Source: Candidatus Latescibacterota bacterium
GTDB taxonomy: Bacteria > Latescibacterota > UBA2968
Length of the DNA: 64,000 nucleotides
Direction: 5' to 3'
NCBI GenBank assembly: GCA_965204745.1
Contig: OZ242010.1
Location: 1,376,001 to 1,440,000, forward strand
Notes under the pieces: generated by a model
Told to the model about the DNA's origin: nothing
What the model saw: the letters and a program-made list of their open reading frames with translations, nothing else
Databases searched by the model: none
Made by a program: the position numbers and the translations under genes
In this document: piece by piece, positions 8,441 through 58,395 of the stretch
Layout: each line of letters opens with the position of its first letter
Position numbering within the stretch: position 1 is the first letter of the stretch

Positions 8441-8902
8441 TAGGTCGTGTTGACATTTTATTTTTTATTTCACGTTACGCATAGAGTAGCAAATGTGTTG
8501 CTTGCTCATTTAAGGCGTTTCCTTTGATGGCTTAGGTTGCTCTGATGGCGTTTTGCGAGGGGACCTATCCCCCGGCCCCTTTCCTACGAGGAAAGGGGAG
8601 TAAAGTTCCTTTGATGGCTTCTCGCTCTGGTTGCTCTGATGGCATTGACCGAGGGCATAAAGCGATTAAATATCCCTCATCAATACCCTCGCAAAACCGC
8701 TCACAGTTCCCCCTTCCTCCCAGGAAAAGGGGAGTAAAGCTCCTTTGATGGCTTCTCGCTCTGGTTGCTCTGATGGCGTTGACCGAGGGCATAAAGCGAT
8801 TAAATATCCCTCACGCTATATCCCCTCGCAAAACCGCTCACTATTCCCCCCTTCCTCGCAGGAAGGGGGGTTAGGGGGGTAGGTCCCGACAAGGAGCGAC
8901 TG
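8441..8902. mobile_element. Partial copy of hairpin-rich MITE-like element (one terminus present)
   Basis: Begins TAGGTCGTGTTGACATTT; reverse-complement homologue of about 33343-33635 with an internal duplication. Confidence 0.7.
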
Positions 8903-11547: not shown

Positions 11548-11696
11548 GCGCGTTCCCTCGTCTGTTCTGTGCGTGCAATGCGTTCGCGGGCAATTTTCCA
11601 CATTTCCACCCCAAACGCAAGCCCAAACTGGTTGACACATGATCGCGGATTGAGCAGATTGGCAAGAGGGGAGAGGTAAGATACTCTCTTAAAAGG

Positions 11697-12704
11697 TCAA
11701 GGGGTTTTCGGGGTGATTCGATAGAATTTTTCGCCCTCAAAATCTTGGTCATGGCGCAACATGCCCCAGATCGAATGGAGCAACTTTCGCATCACCGCAA
11801 CGATAGCCTGCAAAGGTTTCTTGCCGCGGGCGATGAGTTGGTCATAGAAGGCTTTGACATGGCCTTCGTGTCTGATGGCCACCCAGGCAGGCATATAGAG
11901 GGCATGGCGGAGGTACTTATTCCCGGTTTTCGAGATGCGTCTTTGTGGATTGGCGGTTCCGGATTGTTTGGGTTTGGGATCCAGGCCTGCATGTGCGACC
12001 CACTGGGGCGGTTGCATCTCCTCTGGCAAAAGGGTCAACTCGGCCAAGAGCCGCAAGGCACTCGTTTGCGCGATGCCAGGCGTCGAGCAGAGGCGTTGGT
12101 AGGCACGCTTGAGGGGCTCATCGTGCAAAACGAGATCGAGGGCTTGGCTTTCCAAGTATGCAATCCGGCGTTTGAAGTGTCGAATATTCACCTGAATATC
12201 GCGTGCGATGAGACGTGTGCTGCGGATGTGGTAGCTCTGCGCGTGGTTGCGGCTCTGTTCGCGGATGATCTCCTGCTTGAGTTGGTCAATGCGTCTGGTG
12301 AGGGCTTGCAGTTGAAGCCGTTGCTCGCTCGGCGCTTGCCAAGGCACAAAAGGCATGCGCTCGGCATAGTCGAGGATCAACAACGCATCCTTCGCATCCG
12401 TCTTCGCCCGTTGCATGCAGGCTTGGGCGTACTTGCTCATCGCTTTGGGATTGACGACCATGACCTTTGTGTGGCGATGCCGATGCAAGGCCAAGGCCAC
12501 CCCCAAACTGTAAAGCCCGGTCGCTTCGAGGCACACAGAGACCATGTGCCCGCCCTTCGTGAGCCACTTCAGCAACCGCTTATGCGCTTGGGGATCATTG
12601 GCAAAGGTCGCTTGCATGACAGCTTGTCCGGGTCTGGACAGGGCAACGGACAACGTGCGGGCACTGACATCAATGCCGGCAAAAGCGGGGTGAGATTTCG
12701 ACAT
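11697..12704 (-). CDS. IS110 DEDD recombinase/transposase
   Basis: GIDVS, CLEATG, KTDAKDA (DEDD) and GLDP..KQSG (catalytic Ser region); GGAGG RBS before MSKSH. Confidence 0.95.
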   Translation of the reverse strand: MSKSHPAFAGIDVSARTLSVALSRPGQAVMQATFANDPQAHKRLLKWLTKGGHMVSVCLEATGLYSLGVALALHRHRHTKVMVVNPKAMSKYAQACMQRAKTDAKDALLILDYAERMPFVPWQAPSEQRLQLQALTRRIDQLKQEIIREQSRNHAQSYHIRSTRLIARDIQVNIRHFKRRIAYLESQALDLVLHDEPLKRAYQRLCSTPGIAQTSALRLLAELTLLPEEMQPPQWVAHAGLDPKPKQSGTANPQRRISKTGNKYLRHALYMPAWVAIRHEGHVKAFYDQLIARGKKPLQAIVAVMRKLLHSIWGMLRHDQDFEGEKFYRITPKTP

Positions 12705-12772
12705 GGGGGCCTCCTGTGATGAGGGGGTTGTAAGGGATCTGGTGCGCGCTCGGGGTCGCGTCCCGACCATTG

Positions 12773-12955
12773 ACGCCAAGTCTACCGGTCTTGTATATGC
12801 AGCCTCAAGGGGCTTAGATACTCTTCGGCATAGACCCGGCGGTCGGGGGGCCTATCTTACCTACAAGGTCATCGCCTTCAAGAGGGGCCGGCCTTCCCCG
12901 AGCCGGGCATCAAGATGGCTTATCTCGATACGAGGGCGCAACTCCTAATTAACCC
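12773..12955 (-). ncRNA. Predicted bridge RNA of IS110 copy 1 (ends approximate)
   Basis: Same sequence as 49130-49312; target- and donor-binding internal loops match the flanks. Confidence 0.8.
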
Positions 12956-13107
12956 TTACTTCCAAGATACAAGAGGGGAGACGCAAGACGTAAGAGGCAA
13001 GAGGCAAGAGGGGTGGCCTTCTCATGTCTTGCCTCTCACCTTTCACCTTTTTGGGCGATGCGTGGTGCTCGCCCGAAGATACAAGCGTCTGGACTGGGGA
13101 GTATCAA

Positions 13108-28320: not shown

Positions 28321-28467
28321 CTTGTATCTTTGGGCGAGCACGGGGACATCGCCCAAAAAGGTGAGAGGTGAGAGGCAAGACGGGAGAAGACCTACACTCA
28401 CTGCTCGCCTTTGAACAGGCTGTCGCCAGTTGTACCCCGCTCGTGCCTTTTGCGGCTAACCCCCTCT
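28321..28467 (+). repeat. Dispersed REP-containing unit starting CT-TGTATCTT
   Basis: Homologues at 45855-45963, 50501-50636, 33636-33735 (inverted), partial 13040-13085 (inverted) and about 58167-58200. Confidence 0.75.
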
Positions 28468-30713: not shown

Positions 30714-31892
30714 ATGGAATCCGAACGCAATATTCTCGATCACCTTTCCGTTCTCGCACGTTGGCGGCGGATGATTTTTTTTTGTGTTTTTGCGGTCACG
30801 CTGGTCACGGCCGGGATTTCCCTGATCTTGCCCAAAGCGTACCGTGCGTATGCCACGGTCTATCCCCCGCAGGAAACCGGCAGTGGCCTTGGCGGGTTGT
30901 CTGCCCTGTTGCAAGAACTGCCCATCAACCTGATGGGCTTGGGCGGCGCGGCCATATCCGCGATGGAATTTGTACCTGTGGTGGAAAGCGAAAGCGTGCG
31001 TTTGGCCGTTGCCAAGCGGTTTGACTTGGGCGCGCACTACGAGGCCAGTCACCAGAGCGAGTTGCTCGACATGATCGCCCAACGCCTGATCATCGACCTC
31101 TCGCGCGAGCAATTTCTCACCATTTCCTACGAAGCCGACACCCCTGAACGCGCGGCGATGTTGACCAATGCCTTTGTCGAGGAACTCGAAAACGCCCTCC
31201 AGCAGCGCAACCAGCAACAGACGCGCACGTACCTCGCCTATCTCACAGAACGGCTCAAAGAAGCGGAACGAGACATGCTCGATGCCGAGCGACGGTATCG
31301 GGATTTTCAGAACGAGCACATGGTCTTAAACGTAGAGGCCCAAGCCACGACCCAGTTGGAAATCGCGTCCACGCTCATCAGCCCGCTCGCAGAGTTGATC
31401 GTCAAGCGCGACGTGCAAGCGCAACTGATGACCGCAGACAATCCCAAACTCAAAGCCCTCGACCTCGAAATCCAAACCACGCGCCAAGTGCTCGACGATT
31501 TGCTCATGGGACAATTCCCGGACACCCTGAACACCGCGGACCCCTCGGCGCAACTGCCACCGGTTTTCAAACCCTTTCGGCACCTGCCCGACTTGGGCCT
31601 GACCGCGTTGCAACACCTCCGGGAGATTCAAATCCAAAACGCCATCTATCAATTCGTCAAACAAGAGTACGAAAAGACCCGGTTTGAAGATGAAAAAGGC
31701 AGCCATCTCGTCATCGTCTTAGACCACGCCCGACCTCCGGACACGCGCAGCTATCCCCGCCGCACCCTCATGGTCGGCCTCGCCGGCGGGCTTAGTCTGA
31801 CATTGAGTTGCGTGCTGGCCTTTGTCTTTGAAGCGATGCGGAACTTGACTCCGGACAACCGGGCGAAACTCGAGGCCATTGGAAAAAGGTAA
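30714..31892 (+). CDS. Wzz/GumC-type polysaccharide chain-length determinant
   Basis: N-terminal TM plus PKAYRA, coiled-coil periplasmic region, VLDHARPP..RSYPRR plus C-terminal TM; stop abuts IS110 copy 2. Confidence 0.85.
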   Translation: MESERNILDHLSVLARWRRMIFFCVFAVTLVTAGISLILPKAYRAYATVYPPQETGSGLGGLSALLQELPINLMGLGGAAISAMEFVPVVESESVRLAVAKRFDLGAHYEASHQSELLDMIAQRLIIDLSREQFLTISYEADTPERAAMLTNAFVEELENALQQRNQQQTRTYLAYLTERLKEAERDMLDAERRYRDFQNEHMVLNVEAQATTQLEIASTLISPLAELIVKRDVQAQLMTADNPKLKALDLEIQTTRQVLDDLLMGQFPDTLNTADPSAQLPPVFKPFRHLPDLGLTALQHLREIQIQNAIYQFVKQEYEKTRFEDEKGSHLVIVLDHARPPDTRSYPRRTLMVGLAGGLSLTLSCVLAFVFEAMRNLTPDNRAKLEAIGKR

Positions 31893-31909
31893 GATACTCT
31901 CTTAAAAGG

Positions 31910-32917
31910 TCAAGGGGTTTTCGGGGTGATTCGATAGAATTTTTCGCCCTCAAAATCTTGGTCATGGCGCAACATGCCCCAGATCGAATGGAGCAACTTT
32001 CGCATCACCGCAACGATAGCCTGCAAAGGTTTCTTGCCGCGGGCGATGAGTTGGTCATAGAAGGCTTTGACATGGCCTTCGTGTCTGATGGCCACCCAGG
32101 CAGGCATATAGAGGGCATGGCGGAGGTACTTATTCCCGGTTTTCGAGATGCGTCTTTGTGGATTGGCGGTTCCGGATTGTTTGGGTTTGGGATCCAGGCC
32201 TGCATGTGCGACCCACTGGGGCGGTTGCATCTCCTCTGGCAAAAGGGTCAACTCGGCCAAGAGCCGCAAGGCACTCGTTTGCGCGATGCCAGGCGTCGAG
32301 CAGAGGCGTTGGTAGGCACGCTTGAGGGGCTCATCGTGCAAAACGAGATCGAGGGCTTGGCTTTCCAAGTATGCAATCCGGCGTTTGAAGTGTCGAATAT
32401 TCACCTGAATATCGCGTGCGATGAGACGTGTGCTGCGGATGTGGTAGCTCTGCGCGTGGTTGCGGCTCTGTTCGCGGATGATCTCCTGCTTGAGTTGGTC
32501 AATGCGTCTGGTGAGGGCTTGCAGTTGAAGCCGTTGCTCGCTCGGCGCTTGCCAAGGCACAAAAGGCATGCGCTCGGCATAGTCGAGGATCAACAACGCA
32601 TCCTTCGCATCCGTCTTCGCCCGTTGCATGCAGGCTTGGGCGTACTTGCTCATCGCTTTGGGATTGACGACCATGACCTTTGTGTGGCGATGCCGATGCA
32701 AGGCCAAGGCCACCCCCAAACTGTAAAGCCCGGTCGCTTCGAGGCACACAGAGACCATGTGCCCGCCCTTCGTGAGCCACTTCAGCAACCGCTTATGCGC
32801 TTGGGGATCATTGGCAAAGGTCGCTTGCATGACAGCTTGTCCGGGTCTGGACAGGGCAACGGACAACGTGCGGGCACTGACATCAATGCCGGCAAAAGCG
32901 GGGTGAGATTTCGACAT
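31910..32917 (-). CDS. IS110 DEDD recombinase/transposase
   Basis: Translation identical to copy 1. Confidence 0.95.
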   Translation of the reverse strand: MSKSHPAFAGIDVSARTLSVALSRPGQAVMQATFANDPQAHKRLLKWLTKGGHMVSVCLEATGLYSLGVALALHRHRHTKVMVVNPKAMSKYAQACMQRAKTDAKDALLILDYAERMPFVPWQAPSEQRLQLQALTRRIDQLKQEIIREQSRNHAQSYHIRSTRLIARDIQVNIRHFKRRIAYLESQALDLVLHDEPLKRAYQRLCSTPGIAQTSALRLLAELTLLPEEMQPPQWVAHAGLDPKPKQSGTANPQRRISKTGNKYLRHALYMPAWVAIRHEGHVKAFYDQLIARGKKPLQAIVAVMRKLLHSIWGMLRHDQDFEGEKFYRITPKTP

Positions 32918-32985
32918 GGGGGCCTCCTGTGATGAGGGGGTTGTAAGGGATCTGGTGCGCGCTCGGGGTCGCGTCCCGACCATTG

Positions 32986-33168
32986 ACGCCAAGTCTACCG
33001 GTCTTGTATATGCAGCCTCAAGGGGCTTAGATACTCTTCGGCATAGACCCGGCGGTCGGGGGGCCTATCTTACCTACAAGGTCATCGCCTTCAAGAGGGG
33101 CCGGCCTTCCCCGAGCCGGGCATCAAGATGGCTTATCTCGATACGAGGGCGCAACTCCTAATTAACCC
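32986..33168 (-). ncRNA. Predicted bridge RNA of IS110 copy 2 (ends approximate)
   Basis: Same sequence as 49130-49312. Confidence 0.8.
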
Positions 33169-33240
33169 TTACTTCCAAGATACAAGAGGGGAGAGGCAAG
33201 AGGCAAGAGGCAAGAGGGGAGAAGTGAGATGGGAGTTTAT

Positions 33241-33635
33241 TAGGTTCTGTTGACATTTAGGAGCAAAGCAACTGGCTTGAGCGGTTTATCGAGAAAATCA
33301 CGCTCTATCGCAGAATAGGCTCTCGGTTTGAGAAACTGGAATAGTCGCTCCTTATCGGGACCTACCCCCCTAACCCCCCTTCCTGCGAGGAAGGGGGAAC
33401 TGTGAGCGGTTTTGCGAGGGTATTGATGAGGGATTTTTAATCGCTTTATGCCCTCACGCAACACCATCAGAGCAACTAGAGCGAGAAGCCATTAAAGGCA
33501 CTTTACTCCCCTTTCCTCGTAGGAAAGGGGCCGGGGGATAGGTCCCCTCGGTCAACGCCATCAGAAAATGAGCAAGAAGCAACACAGTTGCTACTCTGTG
33601 CGTAACGTGAAAAAATGAAATGTTAACACAACCTA
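33241..33635. mobile_element. Complete MITE-like element with imperfect TIRs flanked by TA
   Basis: TA-GGTTCTGTTGACATTT ... AAATGTTAACACAACC-TA; non-coding interior with three hairpins shared with 8441-8902, 56559-57006, 57900-58024. Confidence 0.75.
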
Positions 33636-44031: not shown

Positions 44032-45670
44032 GTATGGTGGTCCCACTGCGGAGGCGGTGACGAGAAGCCGCTCTGTTCAGAGTTGGCTGAAGCGTCTATT
44101 CCTGCCCGGCGATACCCACACCGAGAACGCGATTTTCCTCGGCCTGATACTCATTGGCACTGCGGTTCGCCTGACCTTGCTAGGCGACATCCCCGCGGGG
44201 TTACACCAAGACGAGGCCAGCACGGGCTACAACGCCTACGCGGTATTGGAATACGGCATCAGTCGGCACGGCTATCGCAACCCGGTTCATTTTATTGCTT
44301 GGGGAAGCGGACAGGACGCCCTATACGCGTATTTCTCGATGCCGTTCATCAAGGCTATGGGCTTGAACATCGTGTCCATCCGTCTCGCGCAGGCCCTGTT
44401 GGGCGTCGTCTCTCTGTTCGTAATGTACGCCATTGGTCGGCGTCTCGCAGATGGGCGATTCGCCCTGTTCGCTCTGTTTGTGCTGACCATCTCGCCATGG
44501 CATGTCATGATGAGCCGGTGGGGTTTGGAATGTAACTTGTTGCCGGCGATGTTACTGCTGAGCTTCGCCTTGTTGCTTCGGGGATTAGAGCACCCACGCT
44601 ACATAATCCCCTCGTTCTTCCTATTGTCGCTTTCTCTATACGCTTATGCCACGGCTTACTTCTTTGTGCCGTTGTTTACACTCGGGGTTCTCCTTATGGC
44701 GGTTAAGTGCCGTCTGGTGGACTTCAGGTACTATGGGATCGGTTTGGTCGTGATGGTTGTAACCGCGATTCCCATTGGTTTGGTCGTGGCGATCAATTTG
44801 TTCGACGCTCCGACCATAGAAACGCCGCTGTTTTCCATGCCGCGCTACACCGGCGGGGCGAGGTATCCCGGGCAAGCGGGGTTCAAGACGTATGTTTTCG
44901 AAGATATTTGGCGCAATGCCAAAGAACTTTTTTTTCTTTTTGTAGTACGGGGTCATGGCAGGTATGTTTACAATGCCCTGCCCGAGTTCGGATATTTCTA
45001 CCGCTGGGGCGGCTTTCTCGTCTCTCTGGTCGGTGCCTGTTTTCTGGTACGCGATACTGCAAAGGATCGCCGCCCCGAGAACCTGCTCGTGCTCCTGTGG
45101 CTGGTGGTCGCGCTCCTGACCTCAATGGCTGTGTATCCGAACATCAATCGATCTAACTGCATATTTCTTTCGCTACTCTTGTGCGCCGCCTACGGATTGT
45201 ACACCGCGCTTGGCGACGGGTACGGGTCAATGGCGAAAATCTTGGGCGTCATCGCGCTGGCGTATCTGACAATTTCATTTGCGGGCTTCACCAAGGCGTA
45301 CTTCGGCGACTACCGCTATCAAAAGATACCCTTTTTCGCTCCTTCTTATGGCGAGGCATTTGCACACATCGCACGCCATGCCGACGAGCGCGAAACCATC
45401 TACCTGACGGACCAAGAACGCCATACATTCGCGTTGTTCTATGCCCGCCCGGATCCCCGCGTGTATATGGAGACAGCGGATATTCCGAATCGAACAGCGC
45501 TATTTCAATTCCCCAAATCCTTTGACCGATACGTATTCGGCATTGACGCAGAGGCGCGGAAGAAGGGCGACGTATTCCTCATCGCCAACCGGAAATTGCA
45601 ATTTTTTTCCCCATCCGACTTCATCATCGTCAGGTTTCACCATTATAGCGCGGCGTACCGCCGTCGATAA
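44024..45670 (+). CDS. ArnT/GT39-like glycosyltransferase paralogue C1
   Basis: IPAGLHQDEA..GY, ISPWHVMMSRWGLE, LSLYAY; GGAGG RBS before ATG 44024. Confidence 0.8.
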   Translation: MAEYGGPTAEAVTRSRSVQSWLKRLFLPGDTHTENAIFLGLILIGTAVRLTLLGDIPAGLHQDEASTGYNAYAVLEYGISRHGYRNPVHFIAWGSGQDALYAYFSMPFIKAMGLNIVSIRLAQALLGVVSLFVMYAIGRRLADGRFALFALFVLTISPWHVMMSRWGLECNLLPAMLLLSFALLLRGLEHPRYIIPSFFLLSLSLYAYATAYFFVPLFTLGVLLMAVKCRLVDFRYYGIGLVVMVVTAIPIGLVVAINLFDAPTIETPLFSMPRYTGGARYPGQAGFKTYVFEDIWRNAKELFFLFVVRGHGRYVYNALPEFGYFYRWGGFLVSLVGACFLVRDTAKDRRPENLLVLLWLVVALLTSMAVYPNINRSNCIFLSLLLCAAYGLYTALGDGYGSMAKILGVIALAYLTISFAGFTKAYFGDYRYQKIPFFAPSYGEAFAHIARHADERETIYLTDQERHTFALFYARPDPRVYMETADIPNRTALFQFPKSFDRYVFGIDAEARKKGDVFLIANRKLQFFSPSDFIIVRFHHYSAAYRRR

Positions 45671-45675
45671 TACAT

Positions 45676-45701
45676 GGACAGGCACAGGGGCCTGTTCCTA
45701 C
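45676..45701 (-). repeat. GTAG-type REP-like hairpin (also about 43976-44003, 45866-45892, 49029-49054, 50512-50538)
   Basis: Minus strand GTAG followed by an imperfect GC-rich palindrome just after stop codons. Confidence 0.65.
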
Positions 45702-46000
45702 GACTGATAGGGGAAACCCCTGACCCCTTGAGAAGGATAGCGCGACCACCTTCTCCCCTCTTGCCTCTCCCGTCTCCCCTCTCACCGAAGGGGGGTTGGG
45801 CGGGGCGGACTGACCACTGCCCCCTTAAGAAGGATAGCGCGGTTGCCTTCTCCTCTTGTATCTTTGGGCGAGCACAGGGGCATCGCCCCTACACATATCG
45901 CTCACCTTTGAACTGGCTGTCGCTCAGTTGTACCCCGCTCGTGCCTTTTGTGGCCTCCCCTCTTGCCTCTCCCGTCTCCCCTCTCACCAAAGGGGGGTTG

Positions 46001-46071
46001 GGCGGGGTGGAATTGGAGCAGTTAGATGCCGGGCAAAGCGGCGCGGTTATCATGAGACGCTTGGACGAGTA
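46001..46071 (+). pseudogene. 3' remnant of a type-B glycosyltransferase gene
   Basis: GGVELEQ|LDAGQSGAVIMRRLDE* matches the B2 tail with an internal deletion. Confidence 0.75.
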
Positions 46072-49023: not shown

Positions 49024-49129
49024 TACATGGACAGGCCCCTGTGCCTGTCCCTACGACTGATAGGGGAAACCACTGACCCTTGAGAAGGATAGCGCGGTTG
49101 CCTTCTCCCCTCTTGTATCTTGGAAGTAA

Positions 49130-49312
49130 GGGTTAATTAGGAGTTGCGCCCTCGTATCGAGATAAGCCATCTTGATGCCCGGCTCGGGGAAGGCCGGCCC
49201 CTCTTGAAGGCGATGACCTTGTAGGTAAGATAGGCCCCCCGACCGCCGGGTCTATGCCGAAGAGTATCTAAGCCCCTTGAGGCTGCATATACAAGACCGG
49301 TAGACTTGGCGT
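49130..49312 (+). ncRNA. Predicted bridge RNA of IS110 copy 3 (ends approximate)
   Basis: Target loop: LTG CCCCTCT 49198-49204, inner hairpin AAGG/CCTT, RTG AGGTAAG 49223-49229. Donor loop: LDG AGAGTATCT 49261-49269, inner hairpin AGCC/GGCT, RDG ATACAAG 49289-49295, closed by GCCGGGTCTA/TAGACTTGGC. Confidence 0.85.
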
Positions 49313-49380
49313 CAATGGTCGGGACGCGACCCCGAGCGCGCACCAGATCCCTTACAACCCCCTCATCACAGGAGGCCCCC

Positions 49381-50388
49381 ATGTCGAAATCTCACCCCGC
49401 TTTTGCCGGCATTGATGTCAGTGCCCGCACGTTGTCCGTTGCCCTGTCCAGACCCGGACAAGCTGTCATGCAAGCGACCTTTGCCAATGATCCCCAAGCG
49501 CATAAGCGGTTGCTGAAGTGGCTCACGAAGGGCGGGCACATGGTCTCTGTGTGCCTCGAAGCGACCGGGCTTTACAGTTTGGGGGTGGCCTTGGCCTTGC
49601 ATCGGCATCGCCACACAAAGGTCATGGTCGTCAATCCCAAAGCGATGAGCAAGTACGCCCAAGCCTGCATGCAACGGGCGAAGACGGATGCGAAGGATGC
49701 GTTGTTGATCCTCGACTATGCCGAGCGCATGCCTTTTGTGCCTTGGCAAGCGCCGAGCGAGCAACGGCTTCAACTGCAAGCCCTCACCAGACGCATTGAC
49801 CAACTCAAGCAGGAGATCATCCGCGAACAGAGCCGCAACCACGCGCAGAGCTACCACATCCGCAGCACACGTCTCATCGCACGCGATATTCAGGTGAATA
49901 TTCGACACTTCAAACGCCGGATTGCATACTTGGAAAGCCAAGCCCTCGATCTCGTTTTGCACGATGAGCCCCTCAAGCGTGCCTACCAACGCCTCTGCTC
50001 GACGCCTGGCATCGCGCAAACGAGTGCCTTGCGGCTCTTGGCCGAGTTGACCCTTTTGCCAGAGGAGATGCAACCGCCCCAGTGGGTCGCACATGCAGGC
50101 CTGGATCCCAAACCCAAACAATCCGGAACCGCCAATCCACAAAGACGCATCTCGAAAACCGGGAATAAGTACCTCCGCCATGCCCTCTATATGCCTGCCT
50201 GGGTGGCCATCAGACACGAAGGCCATGTCAAAGCCTTCTATGACCAACTCATCGCCCGCGGCAAGAAACCTTTGCAGGCTATCGTTGCGGTGATGCGAAA
50301 GTTGCTCCATTCGATCTGGGGCATGTTGCGCCATGACCAAGATTTTGAGGGCGAAAAATTCTATCGAATCACCCCGAAAACCCCTTGA
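49381..50388 (+). CDS. IS110 DEDD recombinase/transposase
   Basis: Translation identical to copies 1 and 2. Confidence 0.95.
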   Translation: MSKSHPAFAGIDVSARTLSVALSRPGQAVMQATFANDPQAHKRLLKWLTKGGHMVSVCLEATGLYSLGVALALHRHRHTKVMVVNPKAMSKYAQACMQRAKTDAKDALLILDYAERMPFVPWQAPSEQRLQLQALTRRIDQLKQEIIREQSRNHAQSYHIRSTRLIARDIQVNIRHFKRRIAYLESQALDLVLHDEPLKRAYQRLCSTPGIAQTSALRLLAELTLLPEEMQPPQWVAHAGLDPKPKQSGTANPQRRISKTGNKYLRHALYMPAWVAIRHEGHVKAFYDQLIARGKKPLQAIVAVMRKLLHSIWGMLRHDQDFEGEKFYRITPKTP

Positions 50389-50717
50389 CCTTTTAAGAGA
50401 GTATCTTGCCTCTCCCGTCTCCCCTCTCACCAAAGGGGGATTGGGCAGGGCGGACTGACCACTGACCCCTTGAGAAGGATAGCGCGGTTGCCTTCTCCTT
50501 CTTGTATCTTTGGGCGAGCACAGGGGCATCGCCCCTACACATATCGCTCACCTTTGAACTGGCTATCGCCTTTTGTGCCTTTGAACTGGCTGTCGCTCAG
50601 TTGTACCCCGCTCGTGCCTTTTGTGGCCTCCCCTCTTGCCTCTCCCGTCTCCCCTCTCACCAAAGGGGGATTGGGCGGGGCGGACTGACCACTGACCACT
50701 GACTACTGACTACTCCC

Positions 50718-53700
50718 ATGCGCTATATCCACACCATCTACATCGTCTTGATTCTCGCGACGTGCGTCTTCGCCCAAGCCTCTATCGTCACTATCGCAGG
50801 GGGTGGGTTGGAAGATGGCGACAATGTGCGGGCAACGGATGTGATGCTCAACCAGCCGCGGGGCATTGCCTTAGATGCGCGGGGCAACCTCTACATCGCG
50901 GATACGGACCACCATCGCATTCGGCGGGTCGATGCGGCGACGGGCATCATCACCACTGTCGCGGGCACGGGCGAACCCGGGTTCTCAGGCGATAGCGGGC
51001 CGGCAACACGCGCCATGCTCAACGCGCCGCAAGGCATTGCGGTTGACAGCGCGGGCAATATCTATCTCAGTAGCGGAGGCGCGAATGACGCGCAAAATCG
51101 CCGGGTTCGGCGCGTCGATCCCGCGGGCATTATCACCACTGTCGCGGGCACGGGCGAAGGGGGGTTCAACGATGGCGTGCCCGCCCTGGAAGCCACGTTC
51201 TACGACATTGTCGCGCTGGCGATGTTGGGCGACGCCGCGCTGTTGATTTCCGATGCCGGGGATCAAACCGGGCAAGGCAACAACCGAGTGCGACAACTCA
51301 ATTTGACGCGCAATACCGTCGGCACCGTGGCCGGCAATGGCAACGCCCGGGCGTCCAATATCCAAGATGGGGGGCTGGCGCACCGCGCGGGATTAACCCC
51401 TGGGCAACTCGCCATCGCGGACGATGGAGACCTGCTGATTGCAGACGTTGCCAATGGGCGCGTCCGCCGGGTCAGCCGGGCCATGCAAGACACGACCGTT
51501 GTCGTCGTCATCACCACCGTGGCCGGGCGAGAGGCGAGTCCTGAAGAAATGCTTTACAAGGGCGATGGGGGGGCCGCGACGAGTGCGTTGTTCTCCAACC
51601 CGTCGGGCGTTGCGATAGACCAGCGCGGCAATATTTATATCGCGGACACGGGCAACCACCGCATCCGCATCGTGGAAGCGGAAACCGGCGTCGTCTTGCC
51701 CCTGGCGGGCACCGGCACCGAGGGCGTGGGGGCCGAAGGCGCGTTGGGCCTGTTGTCCGATTTGCAAGGCCCCGCGCACATGATGATCGACGGCGATGGC
51801 GATCTCCTCTTTATCGACAACGACCGCATCCGAAAATTGCGCGACCCAGGGTTTCGCATGCCCCTCTTCAACGCGCCTGCCGAGGACATCGACTTTGGCA
51901 CGGTCAGCATCGGAGATCCCGCCGTGCGCGGCCTGGCCGTTGAAAACCGCGGCAACCTGCCCGTCCGCATCGACACCGTCGTTTCCGACAATGCTGGGTT
52001 CCGCATCTTATCCGCCTTGCCCTTTGATTTGGGCGTGGCGCAACTGGCAGAGATCGAACTGGCGTTTGACCCCATCCGCGAAGGGCGAGCGCAGGGGATC
52101 GTCACCCTGACCACAGACGACCCGCGCACGCCTTCTGCCACAGTCCGCGTCCAAGGCACAGCAGAATCCGCAGCTATCGGCTTGTTCCCGCCGGACGTCT
52201 TGGTTTTTGACCCCACGGCTATCGGGCAAGCGCAATCCTCGTCCGTCCGCATTTCCAACTTGGGCGCGGGCGTGCTGGTCGTTTCCCATGCCGCGACGAC
52301 CGACTCGCAATTCGTCGTGGCACAAACCGACACCTTGCGAATCGCCTCTGGGCAAAGCCAATCCCTCCGAATCGCATTTCACCCGACGGCCGAAAACGCG
52401 CAACGCGCAACGCTCACCATTTTTAGCAACGCGCCCGCAACCCCGGCGGCCACGCTCCGGTTGCAGGGCTTGGGACAACGCGCCCGGGCAGATGGATTCG
52501 TCGATGAGGCGGCCAACGCGGGCCTAGGCGACCTCGGCGCGGGATTTGGCGCGGCCTGGGCGGATTACGACCGCGACGGGGATCTCGACCTGTCCGTCGT
52601 CCGCAGCAACGAACCCAACCGCTTGTACCGCAACGATGGCGACCGGTTTACCGACGTCGCCCCAACACTGGGCATCGCCGATCCCGGCGACGGCAGCGCG
52701 GGAATCTGGGGCGATGTGGACCGCGACGGGGACTTGGATCTCTACGTCACCAATTTCGGCGAACCCAACCGCTTGTTTCGCAATGATGGCGACCGGTTTA
52801 CCGACGTCGCCCCGGCCCTGGGCATCGCCGATCCCGGCGACGGATACGGCGCGGCTTGGGCGGATTACGACCGCGACGGGGATTTGGATCTCTACGTCGC
52901 GAATTTTGGCGCGAACCGGTTTTACCAAAACGATGGCGACGGCTTTGTCGAGCGTGCCGATTCTTTGGGCCTCGCGGACGCGGAAAGCGGGATTCAGCCG
53001 GCTTGGGGCGATTTTGACAACGATGGGGATCCGGATCTCTTTTTGGCAAACAGCGGCCCCAACCGCTTGTTTCGCAATGACGGCGACCGGTTCACAGCGA
53101 TTGAAAACAGCTTCAGCCCGACCGATGCCGGGCCGAGTTTTGGCGCGGCTTGGGGCGATTTTGACAATGATGGGGATCTCGATTTGTTCATCCCCTACTT
53201 TGGCGCGCCCAACCGATTGTACGTCAATGACGGCGGCAGGTTCACGGATCGCGCGCCGGCCCTTGGCCTCGACCACGATGGGCGCGGCAGAGGCGCGGCT
53301 TGGGGCGATTTTGACAACGATGGATTTCTCGATCTCTACGTCACCAACAGGGAGCAGCCGAATTTGTATTACAAAAATCGAGATGGGCAGGAGTTCATCG
53401 AATTGGCCGATACCTTGGGCCTCGCGCTCGATGCGAACAGCAGGGGCCTCGCGCTCGCGGATTACGACTCGGATGGCAAGTTGGATCTGTACGTCGCGGT
53501 GCAAAATGGGGCCGATGCCCTGTATCGCAACCGCGAAGCCGCTGGCAACTGGCTCGGCATTCGCCTGCGCGGCACGCAAAGTAGCGCGGACGCGATAGGC
53601 ACGCGCGTTGAAATTGTCTATGGCGACGACCGCCGCGCCATCCGCGAGATTTCCGGGGGGGCGTCCTTCTTATCTCAAGACGCGCCCATCGCTCGGTTCG

Positions 53701-55358
53701 GCATAGGCGACGCCGAGCGCGTCTCGGTGCTTTCCCTGCGCTGGCCGAGTGGCATCGTGCAGCAAAGGGATACGGATGAGTTATCGGTCAATCGCATCAT
53801 CGCCATCACCGAGCAGGCGCCGCGCCCGGCAGCGCGGGTGCGCTTAACCGCAGACGCGACCCACTTATTGAGCAATGGGGTCTCGGAAGCCGAACTCACG
53901 GCGCGAATCGTCACCCGCGAGAACACGCCCGTCGTCGCCAGCGGGCGCGCCGTGCGATTCCTCATTGAAACCGGGAGCGGCCTGATCATCCCGTCGCGGA
54001 CCTCAGAGCAAGTGGGCGAAGATGAGATAGCGGTGAGCGATGGGGTCGCGACCTCGCGTTATCGCGCAGGCCAAGACCCGGGCCGCGTGGTCATCATCGC
54101 GGAAAGCCAAGGGCTCGCGCCCGGCCGCGTCGAAATCGAACTCGTCCAACCCTTCGCAGAAGACGCCCTGACCATCCGCACTATCGCGGGTTCGGGGGAT
54201 GAGACCGGCGGATTTGCCGGCGATAGCAGCGCGGCAACAGACGCGCTCCTCCAAAATCCGCAGGGCATCACAACGGATTCCCGCGGCAATATTTACATCG
54301 CGGACGCGGGCAACAATCGCGTTCGCCAAGTCGAAACGGGCATCATCCAAACCCTCGCGGCAACCGCAGAGGGGGAACTCGCCACGCCGTCCGCCTTGGT
54401 CTTCAAGGGCAACGCGCTGATCATCAGCGAACCCCAAGCCCATGTGGTGCGGCAGGTACGCAATGGCGCGCTGGCCTCGTTTGCAGGCACGGGCATCGGG
54501 CAATTTGGCGGGGACGGGGGCCGCGCATCCAACGCCAACCTCAGACGCCCCACCGGTCTCGCTATCGATCAAACTGGCAATGTGTATATCGCGGATACGG
54601 ACAACCACCGCGTTCGCAAAGTCGATCCCACGGGCATCATCACCACCTTTGCCGGCAGTGGCAATCCAGATGAGGGGGCTTATGCCGGCGACAACGGCGC
54701 AGCCACACGCGCCCGCCTCAACCGGCCCCATGCCCTTGCCATTGACGCACAGAACAATGTGTATATCGCGGATACGGACAACCACCGCGTTCGCAAGGTC
54801 GATCCCACGGGCATCATCACCACCCTTGCGGGAACCAGCACCCCCGGATTTTCCGGAGATGGGAACCTGGGCACGCGCGCCCAACTCAACCGGCCACAGG
54901 GCATTGCCGTCGATGATCGCGGGCATCTTTTCATCGCGGATACGGACAACCACCGCATTCGCCTGCTCGACCTGACCACCGGCCTGATCCAAAGCATCGG
55001 CGGCACCGGTTCCGGACGCCTCGATCTCGAAACCGGCGGCGGCCTCGCGGTGAGCCTCAACACCCCTCGCGGCTTGGGGATCAGCCCCACAGGCACCCTG
55101 CTCATCGCAGACGCGGGCAATCACCGCATCCGCGAACTCTCCATTGCATTCCCCTCGGCGATCACAATGCCCACGAGCAATAAAAAGCCCCTCGACTTCA
55201 ACGCCGATGGCCGCGTAGATCTCCGCGACTTCCGCCTGTTCACCGCTGCCTTCGCCACCACCGACCCACACTTCGACCTCACCGCCGACGGCCACGTAGC
55301 CTTCGCCGACTTCCTGCGCTTTGCCAAAATTTACGAGGAAGTAGTCAGTAGTCAGTAG
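50718..55358 (+). CDS. Large secreted repeat protein: NHL propeller, two Ig-like domains, FG-GAP/VCBS repeats plus ASPIC/UnbV, invasin-like Ig, second NHL propeller, dockerin/EF-hand-like tail
   Basis: Signal peptide; GNLYIADT.NHRIR repeats; AWGDFDNDGDLDL repeats; GASFLSQD...LRWPSG; DFNADGRVDLRDF...DLTADGHVAFADF. Confidence 0.85.
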   Translation: MRYIHTIYIVLILATCVFAQASIVTIAGGGLEDGDNVRATDVMLNQPRGIALDARGNLYIADTDHHRIRRVDAATGIITTVAGTGEPGFSGDSGPATRAMLNAPQGIAVDSAGNIYLSSGGANDAQNRRVRRVDPAGIITTVAGTGEGGFNDGVPALEATFYDIVALAMLGDAALLISDAGDQTGQGNNRVRQLNLTRNTVGTVAGNGNARASNIQDGGLAHRAGLTPGQLAIADDGDLLIADVANGRVRRVSRAMQDTTVVVVITTVAGREASPEEMLYKGDGGAATSALFSNPSGVAIDQRGNIYIADTGNHRIRIVEAETGVVLPLAGTGTEGVGAEGALGLLSDLQGPAHMMIDGDGDLLFIDNDRIRKLRDPGFRMPLFNAPAEDIDFGTVSIGDPAVRGLAVENRGNLPVRIDTVVSDNAGFRILSALPFDLGVAQLAEIELAFDPIREGRAQGIVTLTTDDPRTPSATVRVQGTAESAAIGLFPPDVLVFDPTAIGQAQSSSVRISNLGAGVLVVSHAATTDSQFVVAQTDTLRIASGQSQSLRIAFHPTAENAQRATLTIFSNAPATPAATLRLQGLGQRARADGFVDEAANAGLGDLGAGFGAAWADYDRDGDLDLSVVRSNEPNRLYRNDGDRFTDVAPTLGIADPGDGSAGIWGDVDRDGDLDLYVTNFGEPNRLFRNDGDRFTDVAPALGIADPGDGYGAAWADYDRDGDLDLYVANFGANRFYQNDGDGFVERADSLGLADAESGIQPAWGDFDNDGDPDLFLANSGPNRLFRNDGDRFTAIENSFSPTDAGPSFGAAWGDFDNDGDLDLFIPYFGAPNRLYVNDGGRFTDRAPALGLDHDGRGRGAAWGDFDNDGFLDLYVTNREQPNLYYKNRDGQEFIELADTLGLALDANSRGLALADYDSDGKLDLYVAVQNGADALYRNREAAGNWLGIRLRGTQSSADAIGTRVEIVYGDDRRAIREISGGASFLSQDAPIARFGIGDAERVSVLSLRWPSGIVQQRDTDELSVNRIIAITEQAPRPAARVRLTADATHLLSNGVSEAELTARIVTRENTPVVASGRAVRFLIETGSGLIIPSRTSEQVGEDEIAVSDGVATSRYRAGQDPGRVVIIAESQGLAPGRVEIELVQPFAEDALTIRTIAGSGDETGGFAGDSSAATDALLQNPQGITTDSRGNIYIADAGNNRVRQVETGIIQTLAATAEGELATPSALVFKGNALIISEPQAHVVRQVRNGALASFAGTGIGQFGGDGGRASNANLRRPTGLAIDQTGNVYIADTDNHRVRKVDPTGIITTFAGSGNPDEGAYAGDNGAATRARLNRPHALAIDAQNNVYIADTDNHRVRKVDPTGIITTLAGTSTPGFSGDGNLGTRAQLNRPQGIAVDDRGHLFIADTDNHRIRLLDLTTGLIQSIGGTGSGRLDLETGGGLAVSLNTPRGLGISPTGTLLIADAGNHRIRELSIAFPSAITMPTSNKKPLDFNADGRVDLRDFRLFTAAFATTDPHFDLTADGHVAFADFLRFAKIYEEVVSSQ

Positions 55359-55483
55359 TCAGTAGTCAGTAGTCAGTAGTCAGTAGTCAGTAGTCAGTAG
55401 TCAGTAGTCAGTAGTCAGTAGTCAGTAGTCAGTAGTCAGTAGTCAGTAGTCAGTAGTCAGTAGTCAGTAGTCAGTAGTCAGTA
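55341..55483. repeat. (GTAGTCA)n VNTR, about 20 units, interrupted by IS982
   Basis: Seen directly; resumes as cagtagtcagt at 56468. Confidence 0.95.
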
Positions 55484-56467
55484 ATGCGAATTAAGAGTTG
55501 AATCCATCGCGTACTTGTCTTTTCTTGAGGGCTCAGTCATTTCACCCTTAAAGGAAGGAGCACGCGATGGATTGGCAAGATAAACTCATTCACTTGTATG
55601 TCTATATTTGTCAGCAGTATGACCAAAAGCATCTGTGGTTTTATACACAACGCATGAGCAATAACGATACGCCGACCTTCACAGATGAAGAAGTGCTGAC
55701 GATCTATTTGTTTGGGATCATGCAACAGCACACGCAGATCAAGGCGATTTATACCTATACCAAGGATCATCTTTCCGACTGGTTTCCCCATCTGCCCACT
55801 TATGCAGGCTATATCCAGCGGTTGAACCGCTTGTGTGTGGTCTTCGCGCCATTGATTGAACAAATCCAAAAGGACAGTCCCGCAACCGATCTCTCTGAAC
55901 ACACCTACTTGGTGGATTCCATGCCGATTGTCATGGCACAATCGGCACGCAGCGGTCAGGCGTGTGTGGCCGAAGAACAACTGGCCAACAAAGGCCGCTG
56001 CGCTTCCAAAAAGATGTGGTATTACGGCACCAAACTGCACATTGTCGCACAAGACCGTGAGAACGGCCTCCCGAAAGCAGAGTACATCGGCTTGACAGGT
56101 GCAGCAGAGCATGACCTGACCGCTTTGCGACAAGTCTTACCCGTTTTGCGTGATGGACACCTCTACGGCGATAAAATCTACGCCGATCAGCCCTTAAAAG
56201 ACACGCTTAGCAAACAGCAGAACCTGATCTTCGAGACGCCGGTGAAGCGCAAGAAGGGACAAGAAAGCCTGACCGAAGCCGAAAAAGACTATTCTCGGGC
56301 GGTTTCGAGCATACGACAGCCGATTGAGGCCTTGTTCAGTTGGATTGAACGAAAGACGAACATCTCGATGGCGTCTCGGGTACGATCCTATGAGGGCTTA
56401 CTCGTTCATGTCTTTGGGCGATTGACCGCGGCTTGCTTCTTACTCGCTTTCTACTCTTAATTCGCAT
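55484..56467 (+). mobile_element. IS982-family insertion sequence (984 bp)
   Basis: 15-bp TIR ATGCGAATTAAGAGT / ACTCTTAATTCGCAT; CAGTA on both sides (TSD length ambiguous inside the VNTR). Confidence 0.9.
55567..56460 (+). CDS. IS982 DDE transposase
   Basis: FTDEEVLTIYLFG, LVDSMP, YYGTKLH, LYGDKIY, IRQPIEALFSW. Confidence 0.92.
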   Translation: MDWQDKLIHLYVYICQQYDQKHLWFYTQRMSNNDTPTFTDEEVLTIYLFGIMQQHTQIKAIYTYTKDHLSDWFPHLPTYAGYIQRLNRLCVVFAPLIEQIQKDSPATDLSEHTYLVDSMPIVMAQSARSGQACVAEEQLANKGRCASKKMWYYGTKLHIVAQDRENGLPKAEYIGLTGAAEHDLTALRQVLPVLRDGHLYGDKIYADQPLKDTLSKQQNLIFETPVKRKKGQESLTEAEKDYSRAVSSIRQPIEALFSWIERKTNISMASRVRSYEGLLVHVFGRLTAACFLLAFYS

Positions 56468-56558
56468 CAGTAGTCAGTCCCCGCTCCGCCCTACCGCCAC
56501 TCGTCCATTCCAGCGCACGCGCAACGTCAGTAATCCAGTAACTTTCCGGCGGCGGGGC

Positions 56559-57006
56559 GAGGGGACCTATCCCCCGGCCCCGTTATTCGCTTCGCTCATT
56601 GTAGGCTACGCCTGTGCCTACGAGGAAAGGGGAGTAAAGTTCCTTGATGGCTTCTAAGCTCTGGTTGCTCTGATGGCGTTTTGCGAGGGGACCTATCCCC
56701 CGGCCCCGTTATTCGCTTCGCTCATTGTAGGCTACGCCTGTGCCTACGAGGAAAGGGGAGTAAAGCACCTTTGATGGCTTCTCGCTCTGGTTTCTCTGAT
56801 GGCGTTGCGCGAGGGGACCTATCCCCCGGCCCCTTTCCTACAAGGAAAGGGGAGTAAAGTGCCTTTGATGGCTTATATCTCTAGTTGCTCTGATGGCGTT
56901 GCGCGAGGGCATAAAGCGATTAAATATCCCTCACACCATCCCCCCGCAAAACCCATCCGCGTTCCCCCCTTCCTTGCAGGAAGGGGGGTTAGGGGGGTAG
57001 GTCCCG
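56559..57006. repeat. Cluster of MITE hairpin modules, about 126-bp tandem units
   Basis: gaggggacctatcccccggcccc at about 56559, 56685, 56811; same modules as 8441-8902; fragment also at about 34936-34998. Confidence 0.8.
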
Positions 57007-57015
57007 CCATTCCCC

Positions 57016-57880
57016 CTTGTATCTTGGAAGTAAGGGTTAATTAGGAGTTGCGCCCTCGTATCGAGACGAGACATCTTGATGCCCGGCTCGGGGAAGGCCG
57101 GCCCCCCTTGAAGGCGATGACCTTGTCAGGAAGAGAGGCCCCCCGACCGCCGAGTCTATGCCGAAGCGTATCTAAGTCCATTGAGGCTGCATAGACAAGA
57201 CCGGTAGACTTGGCGTGAAAAGGTCGGGACTCGAGCGCACATCAGACCCCCTTAGACCCCTCATCACAGGAGGCCCCCATGTCGAACTCTCAACCCGCTT
57301 TTGCCGGCATTGATGTCAGTGCCCGCAACTTGTCCGTTGCCCTGTCCCTGCCTGGACAAGGTGTCATGCAAACGACCTTTGACAATGATTCCCGGGCGCA
57401 CAAGCGGTTGCTGAAGTGGCTCACCAAGGGCGGGCACATGGTCTCTGTCTGCCTCGAAATGACCGGATTTTATAGCCTGGAGGTGGCCTTGGCCTTGCAT
57501 CGGCATCGCCGCACGCAGGTCATGGTCATCAATCCCAAGGCGATGAGCAAGTACGCCCAAGCGTGCATGCAAGGGACAAAGACGGATGCGAAGGATGCGT
57601 TGTTGATCCTCGATTATGCCGAGCACATGCCCTTTGTGCCTTGGCAACCGCCGAGCGAGCACCTGCTCCAACTGCAAGCCCTGACCACACGGATTAACCA
57701 ACTCAAGCAGGAGATCAGCCGCGAACAGAGCCACAGCCACGCGCAGGGCTACCACACCCGGAGCACACGTCTCATCGCACGCGATATTCAGGTGAATATT
57801 CGATACCTCAAACGCCGGATTGCATACTTGGAAGGCCAAGCCCTCGATCTCGTTTTGCAGGACGAGACCCAAAAGCGTAG
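57016..57880 (+). mobile_element. Divergent, 3'-truncated IS110 (copy 4)
   Basis: Left end CT-TGTATCTTGGAAGTAAGGG identical to copies 1-3; scattered substitutions; homology lost near 57880. Confidence 0.92.
57034..57216 (+). ncRNA. Predicted variant bridge RNA with altered guides (ends approximate)
   Basis: LTG CCCCCCT 57102-57108, RTG CAGGAAG 57127-57133, LDG AGCGTATCT 57165-57173, RDG AGACAAG 57193-57199; stems conserved. Confidence 0.8.
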
Positions 57881-57899
57881 CCTACAACGAAGCGAGTAA
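57279..57899 (+). pseudogene. Truncated IS110 recombinase (RuvC-like DEDD and coiled coil only)
   Basis: 206 aa, colinear with the first ~200 aa of the intact copies; Ser-bearing C-terminal domain missing. Confidence 0.9.
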
Positions 57900-58395
57900 C
57901 GGGGGTTAGGGTCCCGATAATGTAGCGTTCCTTTGATGGCTTATAGCTATGGCTACTCTAATGGCGTTGCGCGAGGGCATAAAGCGATTAAATATCCCTC
58001 ATCAATACCCTCGCAAAACCGCTCCGATCAAGCCATCACGCACAGCGCGCAAGTCCGTCTCGCAACCAACATCCATCTTGCAACCCACCTTGCAGGCTGA
58101 CGCCTATCGTTCTGTTACAAAAGCGTTTTGCGCTGTGCAAGCCTCTCGGCGTTTGAGAGCGGCATTTTTGAACTGCTGGGGCAGTTGTACCCCGCTCGCC
58201 TACTTTTTTTTGCTGTTGAAAAAAAGTAGGTCGCCGAAGGCATCGGAGGCAACCAACGAGGCTATAAGGCCAAACGTTTTAGACCAGCATCGCATGATCC
58301 CTACGGAACGTCTATTCCTCATTCATTCCTGATGTGAGGCAGGATGCGGACAAGATAAAATCAAATTGGTATTACTTCTCACCACTGGAATCCCC

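Follow-up and report, generated by a model that had tools for sequence, protein, structure and literature searches.

A truncated IS110-type element in a Latescibacterota genome with a bridge RNA target loop probably retargeted to a hairpin repeat

The window analyzed here is a 64,000-nt stretch of a Candidatus Latescibacterota genome (contig OZ242010.1, positions 1,376,001 to 1,440,000) that holds several copies of an IS110-type element. Three copies are intact at 1293 nt including the right core CT: 49114–50406 on the plus strand, with a recombinase open reading frame (ORF) at 49381–50388, and 31892–33184 and 11679–12971 on the minus strand. The fourth, copy 4, is truncated at its 3′ side, spans 57018–57889 on the plus strand, and shares 89.6% identity with the intact copies along 878 nt. 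An original prediction made from the letters alone held that copy 4 is an element with a naturally reprogrammed bridge RNA, and the bases it cited for copy 4 and for the intact copies were all found in place. Below, positions of six or seven digits refer to the source genome (G000, 5.48 Mb); G016 and G018 are related genomes.

Copy 4 is preceded by the left target flank TCCCC, read from the sequence at 57011–57015 (plus strand), and by the core dinucleotide CT at 57016–57017 (plus strand), which is common to target and element and is CT in 74 of 74 tabulated copies. Directly after this core, from 57018, its first bases are TGTATCTTGG; the intact window elements likewise open with TGTATCTTGG right after CT and close with AGAGTAT-CT. 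The termini (TGTATC... and ...AGAGTAT plus CT) have no terminal inverted repeats. An element-free paralogous segment at 45248–46011 reads CCCCTCTTGCCT at the insertion point (45755–45766), and insertion therefore took place at a shared CT without further duplication. The intact recombinase matches DEDD_Tnp_IS110 (PF01548, 1.2e-24) and Transposase_20 (PF02371, 4.8e-20). Among PDB chains searched with phmmer, it matched ISCro4 at 7.6e-40 and IS621 at 5.8e-36; the ISCro4 transposase (PDB 9t56), aligned over residues 7–326, is the best relative with a solved structure, by sequence similarity only. Copy 4 keeps the DEDD/RuvC-like domain (PF01548, 3.9e-24) in a 206-aa ORF at 57279–57899 (plus strand), which ends at a deletion joint and lacks the C-terminal Transposase_20 domain. 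Copy 4 is a fragment of an IS110-group member, not a complete one.

Positions 68–197 of the left end (130 nt) form two stem-loops with internal loops, alike in copy 4 and an intact copy. In copy 4 this bridge RNA core lies at 57085–57214 (plus strand), with a large internal loop in each stem-loop, as seen in folds, a 15-sequence consensus, and a covariance model; z-scores of single folds were weak (−1.9 and −1.4). Stem changes keep pairing, as had been claimed: columns 90/147 are G·U in eight sequences and A-U in five, and columns 114/123 are U·G in 14 and C-G in one, each a one-sided change. Rfam returned no match in the window at gathering score, and at 56950–57300 chance-level matches only (E 0.68–0.98).

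The loops of the three intact window copies read CCCCT+CT, AGGTA+AG, AGAGTATCTA, and GCATATACAAGA, and their flanks read CCCCT-CT ... CT-TACCT or CT-TGCCT. In this majority target loop, CCCCT-CT equals the left flank and core, and AGGTA-AG complements the right-hand CT-TACCT. In the majority donor loop, the 5′ side AGAGTATCTA is the same as the right end, with AGAGTATCT equal to the last 9 nt of the element, and ATACAAG is complementary to CT plus TGTAT of the left end. When the right end is joined to the left, a predicted promoter arises across the core (−35 TTGACC, 18-nt spacer, −10 TATCTT; 9 of 12 positions match the consensus). Judged from its sequence, the anatomy of the element is that published for IS621-type elements.

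The target loop of copy 4 differs from this at its guide positions. Its 5′ side, GGCCCCCCTTG at 57100–57110 (plus strand), contains the left guide CCCCC and CT at 57102–57108; its 3′ side, GTCAGGAAGAGA at 57125–57136 (plus strand), contains the right guide CAGGA and AG at 57127–57133 and predicts the right flank CT-TCCTG. Copy 4 thus has CCCCC-CT / CT-TCCTG in place of the CCCCT-CT / CT-TACCT of the intact copies. Domains, fold, and guide reads together bear out the proposal of an IS110-type bridge RNA element with an altered target loop. The donor-binding loop, AGCGTATCTA at 57165–57174 and GCATAGACAAGA at 57189–57200 (plus strand; majority copies AGAGTATCTA and GCATATACAAGA), pairs on its left-end side over CT plus TGT with one mismatch beyond, the own right end of copy 4 having been lost. 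A shift in these donor guides had been taken as part of the reprogramming; that reading fails, as AGACAAG occurs in 17 of 17 full-length relatives in G016 and G018 with the left end TGTATC unchanged. The right end AGCGTAT predicted for intact copies of this type is likewise not required, because the full-length copy at 1297036 has the loop AGCGTATCT and nevertheless ends in AGAGTAT. An orphan right-end remnant with AGCGTAT does exist at about 5323510, in a different flank.

Copy 4 diverged as a working element and was cut afterwards, as its ORF runs for 200 codons without stop or frameshift (dN/dS 0.45 against an intact copy) and its bridge RNA scores 187.5 bits in the covariance model against 190.5 for the best copy. 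Only 3 of 85 scaffold positions differ from the majority. At the deletion joint (57875–57889, plus strand), an internal GCGT..GCCTAC..AACG merges into a look-alike stretch of a flanking hairpin-variant repeat. The repeat entered there is the variant usually found after such sites, about 15 nt past the core, which argues that the lost right flank was that repeat. The deletion would have removed the 3′ third of copy 4 and about 15 bp of right flank, presumably by joining short look-alike stretches inside the element and in the repeat.

The left flank and an abundant hairpin repeat both fit the altered guides. The flank TCCCC matches the own left guide CCCCC at four of five positions plus the core, and the majority guide CCCCT at three of five. 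Three left ends combine a (C/T)CCCC-CT loop with a TCCCC-CT flank, namely copy 4 (1433018), 921772, and 1263487, and the right guides of these three fragments predict TCCT(G/A). The elements at 921772 and 1263487 are 95.6% identical, whereas their 162-nt flanks are 67.7% identical and the distal parts are non-homologous, so these are independent insertions at one type of site. The sequence entered is a palindromic repeat, CCCCC(C)TTCCT-NNN-AGGAAGGGGG(G), with the CT of its left arm as the insertion point. The 10-mer around the core occurs 479 times in G000, both strands counted together, and the predicted 12-mer CCCCCCTTCCTG occurs 94 times, with three of these in the window. Two exact matches lie where they had been reported, in hairpin repeats at 33374–33385 (plus strand) and 8859–8870 (minus strand). 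The third, at 56977–56988 (minus strand), had been missed and is 30 nt upstream of copy 4, where it is held by the minus strand of an unoccupied hairpin repeat, CCCCCCTTCCT-TGC-AGGAAGGGGGG (56964–56988). The description of copy 4 as lying within a cluster of such hairpins stands for this adjoining repeat only; neighboring units carry related but different hairpins. Allowing at most one mismatch, the window contains five matches to the 12-mer against 0.29 expected by chance. At 442 TTCCCC(C)-CT sites, the next bases are TCCTC in 251 and the element's own TGTAT in 24. At 5088573, CT-TCCTC and the repeat variant seen at the copy 4 joint come after an orphan right-end remnant.

Two variant fragments have further structure of their own. 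The one at G000:C1:1263487–1264388 lacks an internal stretch (query 612 to 1018) and breaks off at another copy's inverted left end. A fourth fragment with a CCCCC loop (G000:C1:845540–845760) sits beside three 30-nt direct repeats, CTTTTAATCGAACCACTATGGAATTGAAAC, about 36 nt apart, which resemble the end of a CRISPR array.

Covariation of guide and flank within the genome had been proposed from two co-resident variants and proved to be wider, with at least eight guide sets. The 45 copies with majority guides (CCCCT / TACCT) have the left flank CCCCT in 41 cases and TACCT in four, and the right flank TACCT in 24, TGCCT in 16, and another sequence in four. Four copies of an 88% type carry CGCCT / TACTT, with left flank CGCCT in three of four and right flank TACTT in three of four; a 95% copy with TCCCT / CACCT has exactly those flanks. 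In G016, guides are TCCTC or TCCCC / TTTCT and the right flank is TTTCT in 6 of 7 copies; in G018, guides are CGCCT / CCCTA, left flanks CGCCT, TGCCT, or CACCT, and right flanks mostly CCCGT. Copy by copy, the left guide matches the left flank at five of five positions in 51 of 74 copies and at four in 16, and the right guide matches the right flank at five of five in 34 of 68 and at four in 19; the copy at 5200252 is left out, as a 1-nt insertion broke its anchor.

Across eight guide sets from the three related genomes, with majority flanks used and the G018 guides set by hand, guide equals flank at 71 of 80 positions. Permuted pairings gave a mean of 49.6 (sd 5.6) and reached 71 in 4 of 40,320 permutations. 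Variation is concentrated in the same loop: among 12 lineage representatives, 19 of 25 target-loop columns vary, against 22 of 86 in the scaffold (Fisher p about 9e-6) and 3 of 22 in the donor loop. At position −1, guide and flank alike have C in the three variant left ends that lie in hairpins and in each of the seven G016 copies, and alike have T in the other tabulated copies, apart from the fragment at 845538 (guide C, flank T). A single chromosome carries at least five guide variants, the rarest in one copy and the commonest in 45.

A census of G000 found 52 full-length copies and, by covariance model, 59 strong bridge RNA loci. Thirty-seven of the full-length copies are 99–100% alike and eight more are about 96% identical to those; the remainder comprise one at 95.4%, one at 94.7%, and five at about 88%, and the other loci are fragments. 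Among 40 related genomes, the family occurs in two, at about 83% in G016 and about 78% in G018, both with other guides. No intact element of the copy 4 type turned up in any of these sets. In its own genome, the best other match by BLAST had 90.1% identity and majority guides, and the covariance model returned the 59 known strong loci plus one weak match (E 0.0036). The 40 related genomes held none, and exact target-loop patterns had no match in public collections of genome and metagenome contigs (species representatives). A protein-pattern scan of the genome contig collection gave 168 matching stretches, none confirmed as an intact variant. The idea that two co-resident variants partition target niches can at best describe the past, given that the variant type survives only as three or four truncated fragments.

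At G000:C1:1121584–1124187, two elements of the 99.9% and 96% types lie head to tail with only TACCT-CT between them, the second having entered the target regenerated at the right junction of the first. The order of similarity between the related genomes reverses, with the element of G000 closer to that of G016 (83%) than of G018 (78%), whereas polA is closer to G018 (91%) than to G016 (88%); element history is thus not simply that of the host.

We conclude that copy 4 is very probably the dead remnant of a sister lineage of an IS110-group element moved by bridge RNA-guided recombination, and a case of natural retargeting through the target loop. The sequence, fold, domains, flanks, and covariation are observed directly; we infer that the bridge RNA is made, that it guided these insertions, and what the original right flank of copy 4 was. 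The RNA would be encoded in the left end of the element and fold as two stem-loops with internal loops. Its second loop would match the joined ends of the element, and its first loop the insertion site, the 5′ side corresponding to the five bases left of the CT core plus the core and the 3′ side being complementary to the core and the five bases on its right. Copies of the abundant lineage, with the loop CCCCT-CT-TACCT, sit in tandem heptamer arrays; copy 4 and two fragments, with (C/T)CCCC-CT-TCCT(G/A), sit at the left-arm CT of the abundant palindromic hairpin repeat. Given that both loops and sites differ, related lineages in one genome appear to have been aimed at different repeat families by changes in the target loop.

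Several results weigh against this interpretation. The right flank is lost in all three variant copies, which leaves the right guide without a direct check, and the left guide of copy 4 fits the flank of that copy better than the majority guide does by one position only. Chance agreement is made more likely by the pyrimidine richness of all guides and targets. Taken alone, the contrast of copy 4 with the majority is not significant, at p = 0.15 (5 of 23 target-loop versus 19 of 192 other positions differ), with 11 of those 19 differences sitting in a misaligned 18-nt tail. The permutation result overstates independence because the lineages are related, and structural covariation is weak, at one compensatory change in 34 consensus pairs from 15 sequences, as the scaffold is nearly invariant. 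Strand is a further difficulty: the three insertions lie on the strand that normally continues TCCTC, whereas the TCCTG or TCCTA predicted by their right guides is found on the opposite strand of the same hairpins (205 and 59 occurrences, respectively), and at most 6 of the 94 perfect 12-mer sites are on the strand actually used. The fourth CCCCC-loop fragment (845538) has the unrelated flank ATCGT. Finally, copy 4 is 88–89% identical to the other variant fragments and 88–90% to the majority type; being no nearer to the variants, it belongs to a "variant lineage" defined by guides, not to a supported clade.

The direction of change could also be the reverse, the hairpin-type loop being the older one and the abundant heptamer lineage having been retargeted and then expanded, with copy 4 as a relic; we consider this plausible while leaning slightly against it. 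With the G018 copies as root, a tree built from the first 390 nt places copy 4 and the 921772/1263487 pair outside the clade of the majority, 96%, 95%, 94%, and 88% types, although branch supports are only 0.71–0.80 and a root on a single relative is arbitrary. In the G016 elements, the base beside the core is C in guide and flank alike (7 of 7), and the right flanks start with TTTCT or TTCTT before passing into hairpin-like sequence, whereas the G018 root elements have the T-type CGCCT-CT and sit in heptamer-like sequence. Decay of all variant copies beside a majority that is 99–100% alike is what a recent burst would leave.

It is quite improbable that the guide differences are random decay of a dead copy whose hairpin fit is coincidence in C/T-rich sequence. 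Truncation of copy 4, its uniqueness in the genome, the one mismatch between its left guide and flank, and the non-significant p value of the single contrast would all suit such decay. The nearly untouched scaffold, the high-scoring RNA, and the uninterrupted ORF under dN/dS 0.45 would not, and neither would the two other, independently inserted fragments with similar guides at the same site type or the tracking of the −1 state between guide and flank with 845538 as the sole exception. We regard it as highly improbable that copy 4 is a working orphan guide gene, whose read-through RNA would join with recombinase from intact copies to send circles into hairpin repeats. The original prediction had raised such action in trans, and copy 4 does have an intact scaffold and a donor loop that fits majority-type ends as well as those of full-length relatives do. 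Bridge RNA acts in trans in assays (PMC11208160); genomic IS621 loci in E. coli yield low read-through bridge RNA, with trans action not excluded there (PMC13626964); a transposase gene lies upstream on the same strand (55567–56460); and 17 hairpin-type cores hold a 7-bp piece of the element's end. Yet none of the 45 majority-guide copies lies in a TCCCC-CT flank, and the 7-bp insertions are not assignable to any lineage. The region 56800–57400 has no promoter-like site, a strong hairpin stands between the upstream gene and the bridge RNA, and the −35 of the circle junction is absent here (only one or two of six positions match). Because that −35 sits in the right end, it is missing in the integrated state, in agreement with the promoter logic published in PMC11208160. 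Read-through expression of the copy 4 RNA, by analogy with that reported for genomic IS621 (PMC13626964), is possible.

The mechanism itself is known, and copy 4 is a natural example of it: the guide binning of Durrant et al. 2024 (PMC11208160) and the natural re-direction of Siddiquee et al. 2024 (PMC11187229) are already published. In the former, natural elements binned by their target guides had concordant target motifs with zero to two mismatches, and IS110-group guides are described as eight or nine bases on the 5′ side and four to seven on the 3′ side. As described there, IS621 shares with the present family a DEDD recombinase (5.8e-36), an RNA upstream of the gene, two internal loops, a CT core, and a promoter formed across the joined ends. 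The present family differs in using five bases on each side of the core, with the two bases 5′ of the left guide mismatching the flanks, and in targeting heptamer arrays and a hairpin repeat. In PMC11187229, "natural re-direction" refers to the relatively close relatives ISEc11 and ISXne4, in which, as here, the target-detecting part of the guide and the insertion sites differ. Those are two named insertion sequences, whereas the present chromosome is shared by at least five guide variants belonging to one family, one type being extinct. Targeting of hairpin repeats has a parallel in ISPpu9 and ISPpu10 of Pseudomonas putida, where insertion of IS110-family elements into repetitive extragenic palindromes is reported (PMC12288879) and, in the case of ISPpu10, a target-DNA hairpin is given as a second requirement (10.64898/2026.03.19.712850). 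The strand puzzle of the present family, with insertions on one strand and the best guide matches on the other, may bear on a possible role of the hairpin here.

What this genome adds is several guide variants side by side in one chromosome; no published report of such co-residence turned up, though no search was aimed at that question. With 59 loci, at least five guide variants, and readable flanks, it is a compact natural data set on the evolution of bridge RNA specificity, extended by more variants from the two sister genomes. From it can be read the loop positions that vary with the target, five to either side of the core, as opposed to an unchanging donor loop, and the guide mismatches that persist in full-length copies. 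Such data may be of use for guide-design rules and for understanding how bridge RNA elements colonize short repeats; the published mechanism is unchanged.

Pieces of the element's end also recur in intergenic repeats. CT followed by the first eight bases of the element occurs 212 times in G000, comprising 55 true left ends, 97 heads of a repeat module (...YGGGCGAGCAC...), 38 other sites, and 22 sites with the 7-bp TGTATCT at a core, of which 17 are hairpin-type and five heptamer-type. In these 22, TGTATCT is placed precisely at the CT core of target sites that are ordinary in other respects (CT-TGTAT-CT), for example at G000:C1 415939, 1079907, 3668574, 2981522 (minus), and 2420798 (minus) in hairpins and 3273737 and 4397649 (minus) in heptamer arrays. 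Eleven of the 17 hairpin-type sites belong to one flank family, with perhaps six or more separate events overall. TGTATCT equals left-end positions 1–7, and positions 2–7 (GTATCT) equal the last six bases of the right end plus the core; recombination at the inner CT would therefore leave exactly TGTATCT, which may be an excision scar of this kind.

In the repeat module, CT and the first eight bases of the element are followed by YGGGCGAGCACGGGGGCATCGCCCCTAC... and then by variable sub-repeats. About 100 such sites exist genome-wide, four of them in the window (13066–13085 on the minus strand, 28321–28340, 45855–45874, and 50501–50520), and their left flanks are varied and C/T-rich, with CCCCT commonest (17 of 104). 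Module counts are 101 in G000, 138 in G016, and 22 in G018, against zero or one in 18 other genomes of the genus. We set aside this co-distribution with the element as evidence of mobilization because the three genomes form one subclade by polA identity (91% and 88%, versus at most 81% for others), and the co-distribution is thus not independent. Modules of the form CT+TGTATCTT...GGGCGAGC were also rejected as simple insertions into hairpin targets: in 8 of 8 with a hairpin-arm left flank, no matching right arm lies within 1.5 kb. In these eight (G000:C1:339665, 405654, and six others), the left arm up to the CT core is fused to the module, resembling joints of target left and donor right without the reciprocal product. 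Recombination at half-matched sites has been reported (10.64898/2026.08.31.748434), which makes a recombinase origin of the TGTATCT and module traces worth testing. That the bridge recombinase shaped the intergenic repeat mosaic, by way of half-site matches and of surviving orphan guide RNAs like the one in copy 4, is nonetheless unlikely in our estimate; its possible traces would be TGTATCT at the 17 and five cores and the roughly 100 modules after CT. If true, the activity of this recombinase goes beyond moving the element that encodes it.

The surroundings of copy 4 are themselves repetitive. A long tandem heptamer array (55337–55482) directly follows a gene for a 1546-aa repeat protein (50718–55358), and it is in arrays of this kind that the majority-type element lands. 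The transposase ORF of another insertion sequence (DDE_Tnp_1, 297 aa) at 55567–56460 (plus strand) lies 560 nt upstream of copy 4 and on the same strand, which makes it a conceivable source of read-through. A composite repeat built of tandem units of about 125 nt (GCGAGGGGACCTATCCCCCGGCCCC...GGAAAGGGGAGTAAAG...GATGGCGTTGCGCGAGGG) extends over 56540–56920 and 57890–58010, so that the same family stands on both sides of copy 4; some units carry a 40-nt insert within the hairpin.

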